17,207 nt of DNA from Thermostichus sp. DRC_bins_24 (GTDB lineage: Bacteria; Cyanobacteriota; Cyanobacteriia; Thermostichales; Thermostichaceae): positions 1 to 17,207 of the forward strand of contig JAUQVK010000088.1 in the NCBI GenBank assembly GCA_039794845.1, in the 5' to 3' direction. Below are positions 1 to 13,763 of this stretch, one piece after another (the first letter of the stretch is position 1; every line of letters starts with the position of its first letter). A model generated the notes under the pieces. It saw only the letters and a program-made list of their open reading frames with translations, was not told the DNA's origin and did not search any database. The position numbers and the translations under genes are program-made.

Positions 1-61
1 GTTGCTCAGCGTAGACACGGGTCCTTGTTTTTGTGGGGTGGATCCCTGGTTTGGATTTTAG
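1..61 (-). repeat. Toxin-cassette leader repeat, copy at the window edge (its homology-box part is cut off)
   Basis: 1-61 aligns with 989-1050 with about 10 differences in 62 positions (manual alignment). Both copies lie exactly 84 nt beyond the stop of an immunity-like gene. Confidence 0.85.
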
Positions 62-145
62 TGTAGCGAAGGGTTCTGGTTTGCATATACTCACTCAAAC
101 GAATTATGGAACTGTTCTTGAGAACTGAAAACTCTTTTGCCTGAT

Positions 146-523
146 CTACTGGTGGTTCTTGTTGTCTAACATTGAGCAATATTCTAGATATTCCTCAACG
201 GAAGTAAAATTATGCCTGTCAAGATTGCGATTTTCGCCAAAGTAAACGACTTCATAATCATCACCTAACTCATCAATTAACTGCTTCCATATCTCTACGC
301 CTTCCTTGTCAAAGGCTTCCTGCTCCTCTAACGGAGGTTCAGGAGAGTTGCCAGGATCATCCCAATCAAGCCAGCCCTCATATATGCTGACCCAATTATA
401 TATTCGTTTGCTTAGTTTTTCTGAAATGTGAAGACTTGAATGTTTAATCATTCCTCCTTTTGCCCATAAGCCTGATGAACAATAATCTGCCATTAATCTA
501 ATTATTTTTTTCATATTCTTCAC
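146..523 (-). CDS. Putative immunity protein of the orphan toxin cassette
   Basis: Small, acidic, AT-rich 125-aa ORF. Its GTG start overlaps the toxin-tip stop (GTGA at 520-523); an alternative ATG is at 514. The pattern IRLMADY..GLW...W...Y...DP...F..EG..IW..L..EL...YEVVYF resembles small proteins found behind polymorphic toxin tips (from memory). The immunity role is inferred from position. Confidence 0.7.
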   Translation of the reverse strand: MKNMKKIIRLMADYCSSGLWAKGGMIKHSSLHISEKLSKRIYNWVSIYEGWLDWDDPGNSPEPPLEEQEAFDKEGVEIWKQLIDELGDDYEVVYFGENRNLDRHNFTSVEEYLEYCSMLDNKNHQ

Positions 524-837
524 GATGGTAATGGGTAAGAAGACACGATATATCCATTGTCTGAAACAACAATGATATACTCTTTTCCGTTAACTTCATA
601 GACAGATCCAAATCCCCCTTTTTCGCCTGGCTGAGTGTATTTAACACTATCTTGCGATATTCTTTGGTAGATGAAATTGATAATTTGAGTTTCTGGGATA
701 CCCCTGTTTACAAAATCTTGTCCATGCCTAGCAATAATATGTTGATATCCACTGGCAGAATTTCCTTCCTCCAAAAATACAACTGTTACATTAGGTACGG
801 AGATAATTCTTCCTCTCTCAACCTCTCCAATGCACAA
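520..837 (-). CDS. Orphan polymorphic toxin C-terminal domain (GxxHIxxRH RNase-like); probably a silent cassette
   Basis: Motifs VFLEEGNSASGYQHIIARH and C-terminal NGYIVSSYP. The frame is open upstream to 993 (…LCKLQDPETNGKVVKFSPEKVLCIG…) with no ATG, so the TTG at 837 is only an ORF-caller start. It is preceded by a 45-bp copy of the main toxin gene. Confidence 0.7.
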   Translation of the reverse strand: MCIGEVERGRIISVPNVTVVFLEEGNSASGYQHIIARHGQDFVNRGIPETQIINFIYQRISQDSVKYTQPGEKGGFGSVYEVNGKEYIIVVSDNGYIVSSYPLPS

Positions 838-947
838 GACCTTTTCAGGTGAGAATTTGACAACCTTCCCATTCGTCTCTGGATCCTGTAGCTTACAGAG
901 CAGCTCTGTGAACAGAGGATCGGATCTGTTACAGGTATATCTACCTT

Positions 948-992
948 GGTGATCCCCTGTCTGCCATTCAGTGTTGCCCCTGCCTGGGGTTG
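948..992 (-). repeat. 45-bp homology box, copy of 2085-2129 of the full-length toxin gene
   Basis: 41/45 identical to 2085-2129. It translates as QPQAGATLNGRQGIT versus QPQAGATLNGRQEIT in the 719-aa protein. Confidence 0.95.
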
Positions 993-1050
993 CTCAGCCT
1001 AGACAAGGATCCTTATTTTGTTGGGGGTGGATCCCTTGTTTGGGGTTTAG
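989..1050 (-). repeat. Toxin-cassette leader repeat with imperfect inverted repeat
   Basis: Direct repeat of 1-61. The arms agacaaggatcc (1001-1012) and ggatcccttgttt (1029-1041) can pair with one bulge and one mismatch. Confidence 0.85.
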
Positions 1051-1134
1051 ACGGGTAGGTTGGGATCCAGAGGGTAGTCGTGCGCATGAGGAGTTCCCTT
1101 AAGTAATCTCAAACCATTTTGAGCTGGAGGCCAA

Positions 1135-1605
1135 TTACAACTTAAAACTATTCTTGAAGTTTGCATAAGCCATATCAAAATCGGAGAAATATGAGCCTTC
1201 CTCTCCTGATCTATCAAATCTTTTCTCGTTTAACAAGAGAAACTGATTCAAACTTTGCCACGTACATTGAATTAATTCCTCATCATTTAGATCTTCGATA
1301 TGGATCCTTCCTCCTAACCTTGAGGTTACTGAGATATGATTTGCAGAGCGGATCATCCAAAATCCAAAAGAGGAATCAGCTCCAATATATTCGTGCTCTT
1401 TCTTTTTTTGAGTGATAAACTTTTCTATCCCGTCCAGAAGCCAAGTTATGGACATCATTAAATAAAGATTGCGCGACCCTGTTTTTGAGCTGCAAGAGCC
1501 AAAACTGCCTTGCAATGTGATATGTCCATAGTCAAGATATTCGATAAATTTCTTGTCAGGAGAACATTCTTCGAAAATGAAAGATAACATCGTGCTTGTC
1601 CTCAC
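1135..1605 (-). CDS. Putative cognate immunity protein of the full-length toxin
   Basis: AT-rich 156-aa ORF directly downstream of the toxin gene with a GTGA start/stop overlap (1602-1605); an alternative ATG is at 1590. No signal peptide is visible. The function is inferred from context. Confidence 0.7.
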   Translation of the reverse strand: MRTSTMLSFIFEECSPDKKFIEYLDYGHITLQGSFGSCSSKTGSRNLYLMMSITWLLDGIEKFITQKKKEHEYIGADSSFGFWMIRSANHISVTSRLGGRIHIEDLNDEELIQCTWQSLNQFLLLNEKRFDRSGEEGSYFSDFDMAYANFKNSFKL

Positions 1606-3761
1606 TGGGATCTATTTGGAAATATTGTGATTACCTCGCAAGTATTTGCATTGATGACAAGTATAACTCGATCTCTCCTACCATTAATAACCATCCTATC
1701 CTCAAAAACCTGTACAGGATTTCCTGGTGTAGAAATTCTATTCGTCTTCACCAAGCTAATTGCAGCACTTTCTAACTCGGCGCGAGTGGTTCCAGGTTCG
1801 AATAAATCTCCTGGGCCGTTGGGATGATTACCTGTAACGTGCCTTGCGTCAATGTGAATCCAACCTCGCCTCAAATTGCCATCAGGAATGAAAGGCTGGA
1901 TCCTCCCTCCGCGAGGTAAAGCCGCTGCACATCTACATTCATCTGGAATATCTGGGCGGACAACACGCGATAAAGACTCGGTTTGAGGTAGAGAACACAC
2001 ATCCTCCACCGAGCCATCCCGGAGAGTGAAGTCAATCCCCGCCAACAGCCTCAGCTCCGGGTCGCCCTCAGCCCTGGCATTGAGGGTAATCTCCTGTCTG
2101 CCATTCAGCGTTGCCCCTGCCTGCGGTTGGCTAACCTGGATGACCACATCCTGCGGCAACAGATCCAGCTCCGCCTTGGCATAGAAATTCAGCCCTATCT
2201 TCGGAAGAGTAAACAGCTTCAGCCGGGGAGCCGGGCCAATCGAGCCCCAAATCTCCGCCTCAATCTCAGGATTGACCCCCACCTTGAGAAACCCACTCAG
2301 GTCAATCTGACCTTCCAGGATCCGACTGAATTGCCCCGCCTCAAACTCCGGCGTATTGTCCCACCCAGAGCTATCCCCATAGCGAATCCGCTGGATAAAC
2401 CGTCCCCCACCGTAGGCCACCCCCACCCGGCCATTGGTGACCGACAGCTCCGCCCCCGCCTCTACCGGGATGCTGCCCAGCACCTCAAACCCCACCCATA
2501 CCGATACCGGCCCAATCTGCCCGACAAAAAAAGCAGGCACCGGAATCAAGGTGAGGGGCGGATCCGGGAATCGCTGCCTGAGACTCCACTCCGCCAAACC
2601 ATTCAGCTCCAGATAGGTGCTCGCCTCGATCTCCCTCAGCCCCGCCCCCATCTCAAAGCGGCGGATTCCCGAAAAGAGTTTCCCCTCCTCTTGAAACTCA
2701 AGCCGGGGCGACTCAAACACCGGACAAAAGCCTGCTTCTGCTACCGCCTGCGCCTCCAACTGCAGCGTTAGAATCGATTCCAGTTGTTTGAGGCCTGGAA
2801 AAGGGGAAGGAATGACAATCGTGTCGGTATAAGAAGGGATCCCCGGCAATGGCACCGTCAAGCTACGGCGAATCGGGTGAGCACACTCTCCGGCTCGCCC
2901 TTGAGCCGGTAAGCGCTGTATTTCCCCATTCGGCCCTAGTTGCACCGCCTGCCATTCTGAGATCACTCCCTGTTTGATCACCTGGCGGGGTAGAGCCAAT
3001 TGCACCTGGGCTCGCAGCCGCTCCCCTTGTTCACTCAAAGCCAGGATTTGCACGGGGCGCACCCGCAAGCCTGCCCCCAGCACCACATCTCCCACCCGTA
3101 GTGTGGGCAAGCGCCCATCCGCTTTCAGCTCCAAGATCCCTTGGGTAGGGTCAAAAGCCAGTATGGTTTCGGCCAGCTCATCCCCGAGCACCTTCACATG
3201 GGGTTGAATCACCGCTTCTGGGGTGCTGACGGTAAAGCTAATCCGTGCTTGCGACTGTCCCGCCTCTCCGACTTGGGCTGTGAGGGTTTCCATCCCCACC
3301 CGCTCGGCTGTGTAGACCAGCTGGGATCCCTGTCCCAATACCCGACCGGTGCTGTCTCGCCATTCGGTGGCCTCGGAGGCGGCTTGCAAAGTGATGCTCT
3401 GGCCAATGGTGAGCGGGATCCCGTCGAGGGCCTCGGCATTGAGAATGAGCGCAGGGCCAGAGGGCTCTCCCGGAGAAGTTGGGGTAAGGGTGGGTGTTTG
3501 GCTAGGGAGGGGGATCCCGGGAGGGGTAGAGATTCCGGGAGTGGAAGGGTTGGCCCCTATCGGAGTGGGATTTTGGCTAGGGATCCCTGGAGTGGGTTGC
3601 GAAATGGGATTAGGACTTTGAGCCGGGGGCAGCAAAGACTGCACCCCACCGCCGCCACCACAGCCTTTGAGCAGCAGTACCACCAGCAAAGCCAGCAATA
3701 GCATTCCCAGCGGGAGCATCTGCCGCCAACGACGCACCAGCTGTCTCCATAGCGGCCCCAT
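1602..3761 (-). CDS. Predicted lipoprotein with C-terminal polymorphic toxin (RNase-like) domain
   Basis: Arg-rich N-terminus, hydrophobic stretch and LLKG-C34 lipobox-like site. This is followed by a Gly run, a Pro/Ser/Thr linker, an Ig/PKD-like segment (EWRDSTGRVLGQG…), a long beta-rich region and a second Ig-like start (VVIQVSQPQAGATL…ITLNARA). It ends in an AT-rich tip with GWIHIDARH … VITIFP. Confidence 0.75.
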   Translation of the reverse strand: MGPLWRQLVRRWRQMLPLGMLLLALLVVLLLKGCGGGGGVQSLLPPAQSPNPISQPTPGIPSQNPTPIGANPSTPGISTPPGIPLPSQTPTLTPTSPGEPSGPALILNAEALDGIPLTIGQSITLQAASEATEWRDSTGRVLGQGSQLVYTAERVGMETLTAQVGEAGQSQARISFTVSTPEAVIQPHVKVLGDELAETILAFDPTQGILELKADGRLPTLRVGDVVLGAGLRVRPVQILALSEQGERLRAQVQLALPRQVIKQGVISEWQAVQLGPNGEIQRLPAQGRAGECAHPIRRSLTVPLPGIPSYTDTIVIPSPFPGLKQLESILTLQLEAQAVAEAGFCPVFESPRLEFQEEGKLFSGIRRFEMGAGLREIEASTYLELNGLAEWSLRQRFPDPPLTLIPVPAFFVGQIGPVSVWVGFEVLGSIPVEAGAELSVTNGRVGVAYGGGRFIQRIRYGDSSGWDNTPEFEAGQFSRILEGQIDLSGFLKVGVNPEIEAEIWGSIGPAPRLKLFTLPKIGLNFYAKAELDLLPQDVVIQVSQPQAGATLNGRQEITLNARAEGDPELRLLAGIDFTLRDGSVEDVCSLPQTESLSRVVRPDIPDECRCAAALPRGGRIQPFIPDGNLRRGWIHIDARHVTGNHPNGPGDLFEPGTTRAELESAAISLVKTNRISTPGNPVQVFEDRMVINGRRDRVILVINANTCEVITIFPNRSQ
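2085..2129 (-). repeat. 45-bp homology box within the full-length toxin gene
   Basis: 41/45 identical to 948-992. It lies shortly before the switch to the AT-rich toxin tip. Confidence 0.95.
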
Positions 3762-3975
3762 GCTTCAATCCTTTAGAAAGGACTCACACCCAGTTACAGC
3801 ACTCAACCGCTCCCCATCTCAAGCCTGCTGCGGAACTCTTGCTAAGCCATCCCGGATCCCTCAAGGACATCGGGCCTTAGATCCTTACAGGCAGGGATCC
3901 CAGTCTTAACTGAGCAGAACGACAAATGTATTGAGGAATACGGAGAGGGGCTTGAAGTGATTGGCGAACGCCCTG

Positions 3976-4004
3976 AACCTAAATAGACTATTTTTCAAAG
4001 TCAA
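3976..4004 (-). promoter_or_regulatory. Candidate sigma70 promoter for the toxin operon
   Basis: On the minus strand, TTGACT (4004-3999), 17 nt, TAGGTT (3981-3976). The palindrome AAATAG-A-CTATTT (3981-3993) overlaps the spacer. Confidence 0.45.
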
Positions 4005-4043
4005 GAGGAAAAATAACAAGAAATGTGAAGAGGTAGCATAACC

Positions 4044-4254
4044 CCTCGGGCCGGTTTGTACGGCCTTGCCCATGGACTGGCGAAACCCTGGCGGGTGTGC
4101 CTGGCAGTTTGGGTTATGCAGCGAAAGCCCTAAGCCTGTCTGCCCTAGATCCTTGGTACGAGTGGCTGCTGACTGTGGTTACGATTGGGACAACCTGTGT
4201 TTGGTGCTGGTGTTGATCCTGTTCGCTGGGGTGAACCATGTCGCGCTACCCTAA
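4044..4254 (+). pseudogene. mrpD: Collapsed remnant of mrpD (Na+/H+ antiporter subunit D)
   Basis: Three adjacent fragments in three different frames: PRAGLYGLAHGLAK (4044-4085), TLAGVPGSLGYAAKALSLSALDPWYEWLLTVVTIGTT (4085-4195) and LCLVLVLILFAGVNHVALP* (4195-4254). They resemble, in order, the HGLxK, G-x-P-xx-G-F-x-x-K and C-terminal helix motifs of MrpD/NuoM-like subunits. The last fragment overlaps the mrpE start. Confidence 0.7.
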
Positions 4255-4645
4255 GTTGGGTTTATTAGAAATTGGCCTGCGGCTTTTGATTTGGTTTTTG
4301 CTGACGGGCGATCTGAGCTGGGCCAATATTGCCATCGGCGTCGCTGCAACACTGCTGCTGCCGCGTCAGGCCTCAGCCCCCGTGCAGTGGCGCGACTGGG
4401 GGCGTGTGCTCAAGGAAATTGTGCTCGCCATTCCGCAGGCCTACCGGGAAGCCTTTGAGATGATCCTCAAGCCCCACACTGTTGAGGCGGTTGTTCACAA
4501 ACAGGCGCTCCCCAATCGTTCGGCGGGGTTGGTGTTTCTCGATATCTTTTTGATTACCTTCACGCCCAAGACCATCGTGCTTGATTGCGATGCCCAACAG
4601 GGCACCTATGAGGTGCATGTGGTGAAGCCCCGGGAGGACGTGTGA
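4238..4645 (+). CDS. mrpE: Na+/H+ antiporter subunit E (MrpE/MnhE)
   Basis: IWFLLTGDLSWANIAIG and ITFTPKTIV motifs; first of five tightly spaced small membrane genes. Confidence 0.85.
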   Translation: MSRYPKLGLLEIGLRLLIWFLLTGDLSWANIAIGVAATLLLPRQASAPVQWRDWGRVLKEIVLAIPQAYREAFEMILKPHTVEAVVHKQALPNRSAGLVFLDIFLITFTPKTIVLDCDAQQGTYEVHVVKPREDV

Positions 4646-4893
4646 ATTTACTGCTGTTTCTACTGACCCTGACGCTGTGCTTGCCGCTGTATGCCGCTTG
4701 GCTGAAGGAGGATATTTGGCAGACAATGCTGGCATTTGCCAGTTTGGCCACCAAAACATCCATCATGATTTTGGTGGTGTCGGTGCTGCGGGATGATTGG
4801 ATGATCGGTATTGTCGGGGTTTTGATGTTGTCGGTGGGGAATGCGGCGCTGATGCTTTTGGCCCATGTGCTCAAACGTCTGGAAATGCTCTAG
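4642..4893 (+). CDS. mrpF: Na+/H+ antiporter subunit F (MrpF-like)
   Basis: 83 aa with three hydrophobic segments; GTGA overlap with mrpE; positioned between E and G. Confidence 0.75.
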   Translation: MNLLLFLLTLTLCLPLYAAWLKEDIWQTMLAFASLATKTSIMILVVSVLRDDWMIGIVGVLMLSVGNAALMLLAHVLKRLEML

Positions 4894-4901
4894 GGGGTAG
4901 C

Positions 4902-5183
4902 ATGGATTGGCTGGTCGAGGGGTTGAGCTATGTATTGTTCGCCATCGGTGTGCTGTTTTGGCTTTGGGGAACGGCACCCCTGGTTGGGGATCGCTCGATT
5001 TTGTTTAAGCTGCACAGTCTTTCGGTGTCGGATACCTTGGGGTCGATGAGCATCATGATCGGGCTGTTGTTGCGGATCCCGCGTGAGTGGCCCCTGCTGG
5101 TGCTGGCGCTGATTTCATTGGCGATTTGGAACACGATTTTGGGCTATGTGCTGGCGTTTTGCTCGCAGCGCAAGTCGTTGTAG
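4902..5183 (+). CDS. mrpG: Na+/H+ antiporter subunit G (MrpG/MnhG)
   Basis: KLHSLSVSDTLG motif. The ATG at 4902 follows a GGGGG purine tract, 8 nt after the mrpF stop; the longer 4797 start was rejected. Confidence 0.85.
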   Translation: MDWLVEGLSYVLFAIGVLFWLWGTAPLVGDRSILFKLHSLSVSDTLGSMSIMIGLLLRIPREWPLLVLALISLAIWNTILGYVLAFCSQRKSL

Positions 5184-5192
5184 GAGCGTGCG

Positions 5193-5264
5193 TTCGCGTT
5201 AGCGTTGCGGAGCAATTTCGCGTTAGCGTTGCGGAGCAATTTCGCGTTAGCGTTGCGGAGCAAT
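5193..5264 (+). repeat. Perfect tandem repeat 3 x 24 bp (TTCGCGTTAGCGTTGCGGAGCAAT)
   Basis: Identical units at 5193-5216, 5217-5240 and 5241-5264, with no spacers. The array ends immediately before the ATG at 5265. Confidence 0.97.
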
Positions 5265-5786
5265 ATGGAAGAGACTGTGTTGCTGGTGATTGTGTTGCTG
5301 TTGCCCCTGACGGCAAGCTTGGTGGTCACGCAGGTGAATCCCTATCATGCTTTGGTGATGCGAGGGATCCTGGGGGCCATTGCGGCTTTGATCTATGCCC
5401 TGTTTGGCGCGGCGGATGTGGCGCTAACTGAGGCGCTGGTGGGCACGATGCTTTCGATTACGCTCTACGCCATTGCGGTGCGTTCGTCGTTGAGTATGCG
5501 TCTGGGGGTTGTCGAAGGCAGTCCTGTGCTGGATGTCAGTACCTTAGCGGCGCGGCAGCTGTTGCAGCAGGTGCGCAAGGGGTTGCAGCCGCAGCATATG
5601 CGTCTAGAATTGGTGGCCTATGGGAGTCCTGAAGCGTTGACGGCGGCCCTTCGCAATGGCGAGGTGCACAGCATTGCCCTTGAGCCCACCGACGAGACGG
5701 TTGGCTATCGCCTGATGACGCGCGTACCTCGTCTGCAGGCTATTTTGGCGCAGCAAACCCTCATTTCTGAGGTGATCGCGGCATGA
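5265..5786 (+). CDS. DUF4040-domain Mrp antiporter subunit (MnhB-related N-terminal part)
   Basis: GAADVALTEALVGT motif. The ATG at 5265 is preferred over the TTG at 5205, which lies inside the repeat. Confidence 0.8.
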   Translation: MEETVLLVIVLLLPLTASLVVTQVNPYHALVMRGILGAIAALIYALFGAADVALTEALVGTMLSITLYAIAVRSSLSMRLGVVEGSPVLDVSTLAARQLLQQVRKGLQPQHMRLELVAYGSPEALTAALRNGEVHSIALEPTDETVGYRLMTRVPRLQAILAQQTLISEVIAA

Positions 5787-6457
5787 AATGGCTCTACGGT
5801 GTGGCAACGCTGGTGGTGGCGTTATGGCTGATTATCGCCGTTCACGCGAGCGGGACAGAGTGGGCTATTTCCCCGACGGTGGACGCGGTGAAGACTTTGG
5901 CAACCGAGAGTGGTGTGCCCAATGCGGTGACGGGCCTGATTTTGCGCAATCGTCTTTACGATACGGTGTTTGAAGTTGTCGTGTTTTCGACAGCAATTTT
6001 GGGCGCAAAATACCTGCTGGCGGATGAGCAGCCGACGGCAAGTGTGGCTCAGTTTAGCGATATTCCCTCCGTGGTGCTGGCGCGGGTGGGGGCAACCATT
6101 TCCGCCTTGATTGCGGTCGAGCTGGCGATCCGGGGGCATCTCAGTCCGGGCGGTGGTTTTGCGGCGGGGGTGGCCGGGGGTACGGCGATTGGGTTGATTG
6201 CGATTACCGCCTCTTCGACGTGGATGGAGGAGATCTACACGCAGTGGCGAGCCGCGATGTGGGAGAAGCTGTCGGTGGTGGCGTTTATCGGTGTTGCGAT
6301 CGTTGCTCTTGCCGGTTGGCAGTTGCCCACGGGCGAGCTGGGGGCTCTGATCAGCGGCGGCTGGATCCCGATTCTTAATATCTTGGTGGCGATCAAGGTG
6401 GCGTTGGGATCCTGGGCCGCGATTTTAATCTTTATCCGCTACCGGGGTTTGTTGTGA
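5783..6457 (+). CDS. mrpB: Na+/H+ antiporter subunit B (MrpB/MnhB)
   Basis: PNAVTGLILRNRLYDTVFE and GHLSPGGGFAAG motifs; ATGA overlap with the upstream gene. Confidence 0.88.
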   Translation: MKWLYGVATLVVALWLIIAVHASGTEWAISPTVDAVKTLATESGVPNAVTGLILRNRLYDTVFEVVVFSTAILGAKYLLADEQPTASVAQFSDIPSVVLARVGATISALIAVELAIRGHLSPGGGFAAGVAGGTAIGLIAITASSTWMEEIYTQWRAAMWEKLSVVAFIGVAIVALAGWQLPTGELGALISGGWIPILNILVAIKVALGSWAAILIFIRYRGLL

Positions 6458-12641: not shown

Positions 12642-13763
12642 ATGATAGACGTTCTACTGATCACCATCTTCATGTTGGCCGGGGCTGGCCTTGGGTTTTA
12701 CGGCTTGGATCTGCTGCCTCCCGCCGTTACTCAAGGAGCCAATGTGGAAGGGGCGCGCATCGTCACCAGCGGCTTTGGGGTCCTGGTGGGTCTGGCCCTG
12801 GGATCTGTGGTGCGCTGGAGCTACCGTCGCTTCGAGGCCAACGTGCGCTCGTTGCCGCCGGATGTGCTGATCACCCGCTCGGTGGGGTTGGTGATCGGTT
12901 TGGTGATTGCCAACTTGGCTATGGCCCCGGTGTATTTGCTGCCCCTGCCGCAGGAGCTGAACAACTTTATCGAGCCGCTGGCCTCGGTATTCTTCAGTTT
13001 GTCTTTTGCCTACCTGGGGGTGAGCCTGGCGGATACCCATGGCCCTTCCCTGCTGCGGCTGTTTAACCCCAACTATGCTCTGCAGGCGGCCCTCTGGGCG
13101 GAAGGGAACGTAGTGGCTGCCAGCGCTAAGGTATTGGACACCAGCTCAATCATCGATGGTCGTTTGGCCCAGCTGATCGAGACGGGCTTTCTAGAGGGGA
13201 CCTTGGTGGTGCCTCGTTTTGTGCTGGCGGAATTGCAAACCATCGCCGACAAAGCCGACACCCAGAAGCGGGAGCGGGGCCGCAAAGGGTTGGATACCCT
13301 GCAAGCGCTGCGCCAAGCTTATCCAGAGCGCTTCGTCATTCACGAAACCGACTATCCTGACCTGGCCACCGTAGACGAGAAGCTGGTGCGCCTGACCCAA
13401 ACCGTGGGGGGAACGCTGCTTACCACCGATTTCAACCTGAAGAAGGTGGCGATGGTGCAGGATGTCAAGGTGCTGAACGTGAACGAGCTGGCGGAGGCGC
13501 TGCGCCCCCTCTACATTGCCGGAGACAGCCTTGACATCAAGATCACCCGCGAGGGGAAGGAGCCGGGCCAAGGGGTGGGCTACCTGGATGACGGCACGAT
13601 GGTGGTGGTGGAAGAGGGGCAGCGCTCCGTGGGCAAAACCCGCTCCGTAGTCGTGACCAGCGCCATTCAAACCTCGGCTGGCCGGATGATCTTTGCTCGT
13701 CTTAACCCGTCGGCTGCTCCTACCACTCCTACTCCTCCTGTTAATCCCTCCACAAAAGCCTGA
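12642..13763 (+). CDS. Membrane-anchored PIN/TRAM domain protein (YacL family)
   Basis: Four N-terminal hydrophobic segments, PIN motifs [10 protein letters not shown] and TTDFNL, and TRAM region [20 protein letters not shown]. Confidence 0.92.

Follow-up and report, generated by a model that had tools for sequence, protein, structure and literature searches.

Is the long minus-strand gene at one end of a cyanobacterial contig the carrier of an exchangeable toxin, and, if so, is the arrangement of a new kind? The question arises from contig JAUQVK010000088.1 of Thermostichus sp. DRC_bins_24 (assembly GCA_039794845.1), in which four co-directional open reading frames (ORFs), all on the minus strand, occupy positions 146..3761 of the window, by which we mean the whole 17,207-nt stretch analysed. 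An initial annotation, made from the DNA letters alone, had proposed here a new class of lipoprotein-anchored polymorphic toxin system: a 719-aa protein with an LKG-C34 leader, a Pro-rich linker, an Ig-like and beta-rich body and an AT-rich tip, followed by a coupled small gene, a second tip without an N-terminus, and another coupled small gene. Every motif it quoted is present, and ORF calling (1605/1590..1135, 837..520 and 523/514..146 for the three downstream genes) and base and residue composition agree with its description. We consider it highly probable that the locus is a polymorphic toxin-immunity array whose carrier belongs to an undescribed family, found to date in cyanobacterial genomes alone; the tip and immunity homologies and the variable C-termini of relatives described below bear out that a lipoprotein-type carrier heads an array with an orphan cassette, while the claim of a new class was too strong. 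The features of the locus are as follows.

1602..3761, minus strand: predicted main polymorphic toxin gene, a 719-aa ORF with a lipoprotein carrier and a C-terminal toxin tip
3660..3761, minus strand: predicted signal peptide with lipobox LKG-C34, residues 1-34 (from sequence)
3453..3659, minus strand: Pro/Gly/Ser/Thr-rich tether, residues 35-103 (from composition)
1995..3452, minus strand: conserved carrier body, residues 104-589 (from the AlphaFold2 model and the alignment of homologues)
2004..2033, minus strand: junction motif DFTLRDGSVE, residues 577-586, at which the conserved carrier ends
1929..1997, minus strand: Cys loop C589...C609/C611 between carrier and tip (from the motif-bearing sequences)
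1605..1928, minus strand: putative main toxin tip, residues 612-719, GWIHIDARH...ITIFP (from homology to the C-termini of other toxins)
1135..1590, minus strand: candidate immunity gene 1, 151 aa from its ATG, with an alternative GTG start at 1605
989..1050, minus strand: inter-cassette repeat, copy 1, about 83% identical to copy 2 at 1-61
948..1003, minus strand: 56-nt homology box, 84% identical to main-gene positions 2085-2140 and coding for QPQAGATLNGRQ
520..837, minus strand: orphan toxin tip, a 105-aa ORF, GYQHIIARH...VSSYP, of the CdiA-CT BWH57 family, whose stop-free frame reaches 993
146..514, minus strand: immunity gene 2, of the CdiI BWH57 family, with an alternative GTG start at 523
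1..61, minus strand: inter-cassette repeat, copy 2, cut by the contig end

The strongest evidence comes from the way the relatives of the 719-aa protein end. A word-indexed homologue search restricted to proteins of 395-1259 aa returned four homologues (E 1e-219 to 5e-66), which align with the window protein as far as residue 589 and then diverge completely. An exhaustive profile search yielded 149 representatives at E<=1e-3, 43 of these at E<=1e-30; because the profile included CBM_2 and NucA-tip columns, the weaker of the 149 matches are not all carriers. Related genome loci numbered 13, all from bins labelled cyanobacterial or uncultured. The junction motif, generalised as D[FL]TLRDG[SR]VE, occurs in 19 sequences, a count that overstates independence since some of them are related. 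For the 18 with enough upstream sequence to be compared pairwise (153 pairs), mean identity was 53% over the 60 residues ending at the motif and 25% in the tails, which answers in the affirmative the check, suggested in the initial annotation, of whether body homologues carry different C-termini. Tail identity exceeded 35% in just 5 of the 153 pairs, and the window's tip was shared by none. A Cys stands 1-5 residues past the motif in all 19 sequences, with a second at tail position 20-39 in 17 of them, giving a Cys-x(17-35)-Cys loop that follows the motif in the family; the orphan ORF keeps a C-x20-C stretch. The locus and its relatives thus show the three marks of a polymorphic toxin in the general definition of Zhang et al. 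(2012): an N-terminal region that is conserved while the C-terminal domains of close homologues are unrelated, a downstream immunity gene that co-varies with the tip, and orphan tip/immunity cassettes with junction homology (in the window, the box of homology lies out of frame with the tip).

Base composition sets the tips and small genes apart: GC was 0.604 in the carrier body and 0.578 in the rest of the window, vs. 0.434 in the main tip (last 100 codons) and, in the first small gene, the orphan tip and the second small gene, 0.362, 0.377 and 0.381 respectively. The junction box has a 30-nt core that is present at both 957-986 and 2094-2123, whereas 200 shuffles gave no match, so the array goes beyond chance. 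The first small gene comes directly behind the main gene, the ATG of immunity gene 1 at 1590 lying 11 nt past the stop of the main gene and the alternative GTG at 1605 overlapping that stop; a gap of 297 nt separates the first small ORF from the orphan tip ORF, which the second small ORF, taken from 523, overlaps. For immunity gene 1 the ATG at 1590 is the more likely start, being the one held by the public protein atlas, and for immunity gene 2 the alignment to CdiI makes the ATG at 514 the more likely. Since the window is an entire contig whose end falls inside a further copy of the inter-cassette repeat (1-61), the array probably continues past the assembly break, with a further orphan cassette there, and is probably what broke the assembly. 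A promoter and terminator scan of positions 1-4300 gave no signal (5 promoter-like sites vs. 4.2 expected, 2 terminator-like vs. 5.1), and Rfam gave 0 matches at E<=0.1 over the same positions.

The main tip recurs on toxins of other kinds. When residues 600-719 were used as query, 7 matches (E 2e-26 to 6e-24) were found among 187 candidates; all 7 bear the tip C-terminally on RHS, HINT or DUF4157 (PF13699) carriers, at 55-57% identity. A HINT protein annotated as polymorphic toxin-type, on plasmid pOSC7112.02 of Oscillatoria nigro-viridis PCC 7112, has the main tip at its C-terminus (53% over 87 aa, E 5e-26) and is followed by an insertion sequence (IS) transposase and then by a 151-aa gene 30% identical to immunity gene 1 (E 3e-14). 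With the same tip and a homologue of immunity gene 1 both present in Oscillatoria, the gene therefore accompanies the tip on different carriers, which is what one expects of an immunity gene. The ISKra4-like transposase between the HINT toxin and the immunity homologue (L014:4356-5422, NC_019730.1) seems to have clipped the final residues of the Oscillatoria tip. Immunity protein 1 has five close homologues and no PDB or Pfam match; its look-alikes in the protein atlas, unnamed clusters of 144-160 aa from Actinomycetota and Bacillota, are leads only. Inspection of the sequences revealed no evident signal peptide in either immunity protein, and the two are unrelated to each other.

The orphan cassette can be placed more directly. 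Its tip matches chain C of 7m5f (E 8.9e-11, residues 18-99 vs. 52-135) and the product of the second small gene matches chain A (E 2.1e-8, residues 6-96 vs. 2-96); 7M5F is the solved CdiA-CT/CdiI complex of Serratia marcescens BWH57, so the orphan pair is homologous to both of its chains. The BWH57 CdiA-CT is described as a BECR-fold protein with candidate residues H47, E51, H52 and R89, MqsR and BrnT being structural neighbours of the toxin, and its CdiI family is reported to occur in cyanobacteria (PMC8616854). In our alignment of the orphan tip, both candidate His residues align, and E51 is replaced by Arg. The two tips of the window gave a short BLAST match to each other (9 of 18 residues) and were aligned by hhalign over 86 columns (77% probability, E 2e-5); these comparisons suggest that they likely have a common fold and that the main tip is probably a BECR-type RNase. 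A profile of the main-tip family did not reach 7m5f at E<=1, matching just the RHS and Hint parts of other carriers. The PDB matches of the main tip alone (WD-repeat and light-harvesting chains) were judged spurious.

The orphan ORF has its own TTG start and neither a signal peptide nor a carrier. The box at 948-1003 lies in another reading frame than the orphan tip, and its box-to-loop spacing falls about 40 nt short of that in the main gene; for these reasons we take the orphan, as assembled, to be a decayed remnant rather than a ready spare, with the reservation that the frame offset may be a sequencing error.

Variation in tip and in downstream gene extends to the relatives, for which Pfam was applied to 48 of the 149 representatives and to 11 genome loci. 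Assigned tips were DUF6310 (E 5e-24), DUF6972 (E 4e-24 and 1e-24), NucA/NucB (E 2e-7, 1e-7 and 7e-7, above the cut-off, and 0.003, below it) and AHH (E 6e-4, below the cut-off), together with weak Tox-REase-2, EndoU and HNH matches. A small ORF lies within 0-160 nt 3' of the toxin gene in 11 of the 11 loci with a complete 3' end, and in six of the loci its family could be named, as listed here; where recognisable, this gene suits the tip.

L002 and L007: tip NucA/NucB, followed downstream by ComJ
L008: tip DUF6310, followed downstream by DUF5953, both well above cut-offs
L009: tip AHH, followed downstream by three Imm11 paralogues
L006: tip without a Pfam assignment, followed downstream by DUF4279
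L012: tip without a Pfam assignment, followed downstream by DUF7668

In bits, the L007 tip scored 30.2 vs. a Pfam cut-off of 23.8 and its ComJ 23.9 vs. 25, while the L002 NucA/NucB tip (18.6 vs. 23.8) and the L009 AHH tip (20.3 vs. 22.3) fell below their cut-offs. ComJ, or Nin, is the inhibitor of the Bacillus competence nuclease. In L001 an orphan fragment keeps homology to the body over about 110 aa; it has a new tip, and two small genes that are paralogues accompany it. Tandem immunity paralogues were observed in two places, namely three Imm11-like genes past the AHH-type tip (L009:10697-12764) and two genes of 165-170 aa past the L001 orphan (L001:11728-12828). A 3'-open ORF past the immunity gene of L006 (L006:4267-4494) weakly matches the L006 toxin body (residues 611-627), and may belong to the beginning of a further orphan cassette, truncated where the contig stops.

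What, then, is the carrier? The N-terminus of the 719-aa protein, MGPLWRQLVRRWRQMLPLGMLLLALLVVLLLKG-C34, has what marks a bacterial lipoprotein at the level of sequence: a positive n-region (four Arg within residues 1-34), a hydrophobic, Leu-rich h-region and a lipobox ending in Cys, LKG-C34. A Lys at lipobox position -2 is atypical against the usual consensus. As the initial annotation had stated, LKGC is found in cyanobacterial lipoboxes, being reported as the signal peptidase II site of CmpA, where the Cys is lipidated (PMC11349869). When the first 60 residues of 71 family sequences were screened with a simple pattern, 18 had a lipobox-like site, two of them doubtful, and the variants LKSC, LLAC, LIAC, LISC, LVSC, LAGC and LASC were met at the end of the hydrophobic segment; of the other 53, many are either fragments truncated at the N-terminus or SLH proteins whose signal peptides are of the ordinary kind. 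The tether that follows (residues 35-103, 69 residues) is 29% Pro, 16% Gly, 13% Ser and 12% Thr, and in homologues it varies in length and is replaced or extended by CBM_2 domains. One or two copies of CBM_2 (E 1e-18 to 1e-55) lie between lipobox and body in many homologues (P0003, P0017, P0019-P0025; L002, L005, L008), a position at which the window protein has the Pro-rich tether alone.

The body, of about 490 aa, was modelled with AlphaFold2 (residues 98-600, on a 61-sequence alignment) as an all-beta structure, with a mean predicted local distance difference test (pLDDT) of 88.0 and a predicted template modelling score (pTM) of 0.66; an earlier model from 5 sequences was poor (pLDDT 61.7) and was dropped in its favor. 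The model comprises two N-terminal beta domains, a domain with strands of 20-44 residues, and a small Ig-like domain before the tip, in keeping with the Ig-like, beta-rich body proposed at the outset. With Pfam, none of the four proteins matched a family at E<=1, so that the carrier indeed shows no RHS, haemagglutinin, VENN, LXG, PAAR or Hint domain at that threshold. For the 719-aa protein, NCBIfam gave three sub-threshold matches alone, all within residues 5-101, and for the body the PDB gave just E 0.16 and 1.4 by sequence search and none at E<=0.1 by profile search; asked whether the body matches a described toxin carrier, these three databases returned no match. Foldseek of the whole body model returned generic Ig-array matches alone from the PDB (best template modelling (TM) score by query 0.16) and local BIG2/Ig-like matches alone from BFVD. 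With the atlas model of the protein, look-alike clusters were seen over residues 290-590 at a TM of about 0.6 (unnamed actinobacterial, DUF8402, DUF8403 and fungal DUF7223 clusters), as leads only. Distant relatives of the N-terminal domains of the body include SLH-domain proteins of ~1000 aa without the toxin junction (P0045, P0049, P0050, P0059, P0060, P0062), so this part is a general surface-protein module.

Downstream of the immunity and orphan genes, a gene for a VWD-domain lipoprotein, often with LRR or NHL repeats, is found in eight of the eight loci that extend far enough (the count leaves out L004, L006 and L010, which end too soon, as does the window). It was recognised by Pfam at L001:12929-15604, L003:7840-8964, L005:10622-13036 and L009:12807-14486, by 41% identity to the L001 protein at L007:10412-11776, and by truncated N-terminal matches (E 2e-4 to 3e-16) in L002, L008 and L012. 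In P0047 (1602 aa) the VWD/LRR module (E 8e-54) is fused to the carrier body, which matches window residues 53-592 at E 2e-31. On the other side, the genes upstream in 7 related loci bear no relation to each other. The initial annotation had seen no secretion genes nearby, and we likewise found none in the window and none conserved beside the relatives.

Taken as a toxin-immunity array, the locus might work as follows. The precursor would be exported by Sec and lipidated at Cys34, and the Pro-rich tether would hold the protein on a membrane, the body acting as an escort or targeting module, helped in relatives by the CBM_2 domains. Freed at the disulphide-bridged junction loop, the tip would enter the cytoplasm of a neighbouring cell and there, as a BECR-type RNase, cleave RNA, while the cytoplasmic 151-aa immunity protein would protect the producer. 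The second tip and immunity gene would be a displaced former cassette, now partly decayed, kept for immunity and as recombination stock, and tips would be exchanged by recombination at the conserved junction.

Several points weigh against this scheme. The link of the main tip to BECR proteins depends on one hhalign match at 77%, the profile having missed 7m5f, and where the BWH57 toxin has E51, both tips of the window have Arg. Several tip assignments in relatives fall below Pfam cut-offs. The body is not specific to toxins, being joined to VWD/LRR in P0047 and sharing its N-terminal domains with SLH proteins. With the orphan box out of frame and its spacing shorter, a simple crossover there would give no working fusion. 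The LKGC of CmpA anchors a periplasmic protein of the plasma membrane (PMC11349869), and cyanobacterial lipoproteins are reported also to reach the thylakoid lumen (PMC5033237), so an outward-facing location of the toxin is an assumption; lipidation, localisation, toxicity and neutralisation, and also the surface or vesicle delivery and the kin discrimination put forward in the initial annotation, all stand here as predictions.

The main rival takes the same locus to encode a released, bacteriocin-like toxin; other rivals fit the data poorly. A diffusible toxin of the colicin or pyocin S type, set free by cleavage of the anchor or tether or by lysis, would bind a receptor or polysaccharide of the target through its body, which would drive import of the nuclease tip. 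The CBM_2 domains of many homologues sit between lipobox and body, in the manner of a receptor-binding module, cleavage could take place in the Pro-rich tether, as is proposed for SitA (PMC8546572), and no apparatus dedicated to secretion or contact is conserved upstream. The window protein itself, however, has no CBM_2, there is no lysis gene, Pfam found no translocation or receptor domain of colicins or pyocins, and a family-wide lipid anchor would be needless for a freely released toxin; we judge this alternative rather unlikely.

A bolder extension of the array reading assigns a part to the partner gene. The carrier and the adjacent VWD/LRR/NHL lipoprotein would together form a cell-contact toxin-transfer system, a counterpart of TraAB/SitA exchange, in which the VWD protein docks, the long-strand domain passes the membrane and the Cys loop serves as a nick-and-reduce latch. 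We regard this as speculative and doubtful; if true, it would be a functional counterpart, in cyanobacteria, of myxobacterial outer-membrane exchange.

Far less probable is a scavenging nuclease, anchored at the surface, that breaks down extracellular nucleic acid in the mat and is paired with an intracellular inhibitor, on the logic of barnase and barstar or of NucA and Nin. The NucA/NucB-type tips followed by ComJ in several relatives would suit it, as would immunity proteins without an evident signal peptide; it leaves unexplained the unrelated tips on near-identical carriers, the orphan tip/immunity cassettes and the tandem immunity paralogues (L009, L001), and the occurrence of the same tips on RHS, HINT and CdiA toxins. 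That the tip/immunity pairs are intracellular toxin-antitoxin or abortive-infection modules, the long ORF being an unrelated surface protein fused to one by chance or misassembly, is scarcely credible: BECR-fold toxins do occur in toxin-antitoxin systems (MqsR and BrnT are near the BWH57 toxin; PMC8616854), GC falls sharply at the tip and the orphan ORF has its own TTG start, but the long ORF and the tip are fused in frame, such fusions are seen with other tips in 11 further loci of cyanobacterial bins, and the join always falls at the same motif and Cys loop.

The other genes of the window are housekeeping genes, coding for mnh/mrp-type antiporter subunits, SppA, a CofD-family protein, RapZ, endonuclease III, an M50 protease, a PIN-TRAM protein, a histidine kinase, KsgA and a short-chain dehydrogenase. 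The mnh/mrp-type cation/proton antiporter operon (4238-6457, plus strand; MnhE, MnhG, MbhD-like and MnhB-like subunits) is divergent from the toxin gene and begins 476 nt upstream of it. The PIN and TRAM protein (12642-13763, plus strand) adjoins a GAF histidine kinase and is unrelated to the toxin locus.

To our knowledge, very little is known of interbacterial antagonism in cyanobacteria, and we know of no interbacterial delivery route in that phylum. The locus provides a well-defined carrier, bounded by a sharp junction motif, along with a conserved partner gene and two toxin/immunity pairs that lend themselves to testing, and kin discrimination by lipoprotein toxins thereby becomes testable in mat-forming cyanobacteria. 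The activity of the BWH57 toxin family is not easily predicted, according to the depositors (PMC8616854), and the orphan pair therefore gives that family a second, non-CDI (contact-dependent growth inhibition) context.

How does the array compare with known systems? Its closest likeness is to SitA of myxobacteria, which is described as having a lipobox, a disordered region, an escort domain of ~375 aa that defines six non-homologous families, modular nucleases, and SitI as immunity protein (PMC8546572). On that description the window protein shares with SitA the lipobox (LKG-C34) followed by a Pro-rich stretch (69 residues), the family-specific N-terminal carrier, the modular polymorphic C-terminal toxin that is found in other toxin systems, and the adjacent immunity gene with cytoplasmic immunity (PMC8546572). 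It differs in its cyanobacterial host, in its all-beta body of about 490 aa and in the conserved downstream VWD lipoprotein of related loci; moreover, unlike SitA with its TraAB outer membrane exchange, it has no TraA- or TraB-like gene in the window. The orphan tip and second small gene are homologous to the toxin and immunity chains of CdiA-CT/CdiI BWH57, whereas two-partner secretion (TPS) domain, filamentous haemagglutinin (FHA) repeats, VENN and CdiA filament (Pfam, E<=1) and a CdiB neighbour, all expected of CdiA, were not found in the window, the cassette being an orphan behind a lipoprotein carrier, with Arg in place of E51. Rhs, HINT and DUF4157 (PF13699) toxins have a last ~100 aa that is 55-57% identical to the main tip; unlike them, the window protein is without YD repeats, RHS core, Hint or PF13699 (Pfam, E<=1). 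It also differs from MafB, LXG and PAAR or type VI secretion system (T6SS)-linked toxins, no such N-terminal domain being found by Pfam or NCBIfam.

For Amoebophilus APD1/APD2 and Neisseria MafB-N, a conserved lineage-specific domain past the signal peptide or lipobox is described, which carries polymorphic C-termini and is exported via the general secretory pathway (PMC3482391). The window protein resembles APD1/APD2, so described, in its lipobox, conserved N-terminal domain and polymorphic C-termini; the APD effectors differ in being predicted to target a eukaryotic host (PMC3482391), and no Pfam model matched the window protein. A full-text literature search found no description of this carrier. 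The term 'new class' used at the outset nevertheless overstates the case, because both tip/immunity modules are of families that CdiA, Rhs and HINT toxins already use, and because the layout of lipobox, tether, carrier and modular toxin-immunity pair is described for SitA (PMC8546572); for APD1/APD2, too, a lipobox with a conserved domain behind it and polymorphic C-termini is described (PMC3482391). The toxin modules and the overall logic are already known; new here, on a comparison with SitA escorts and APD1/2 by description only, are the carrier family, the junction signature, the partner gene and the phylum.

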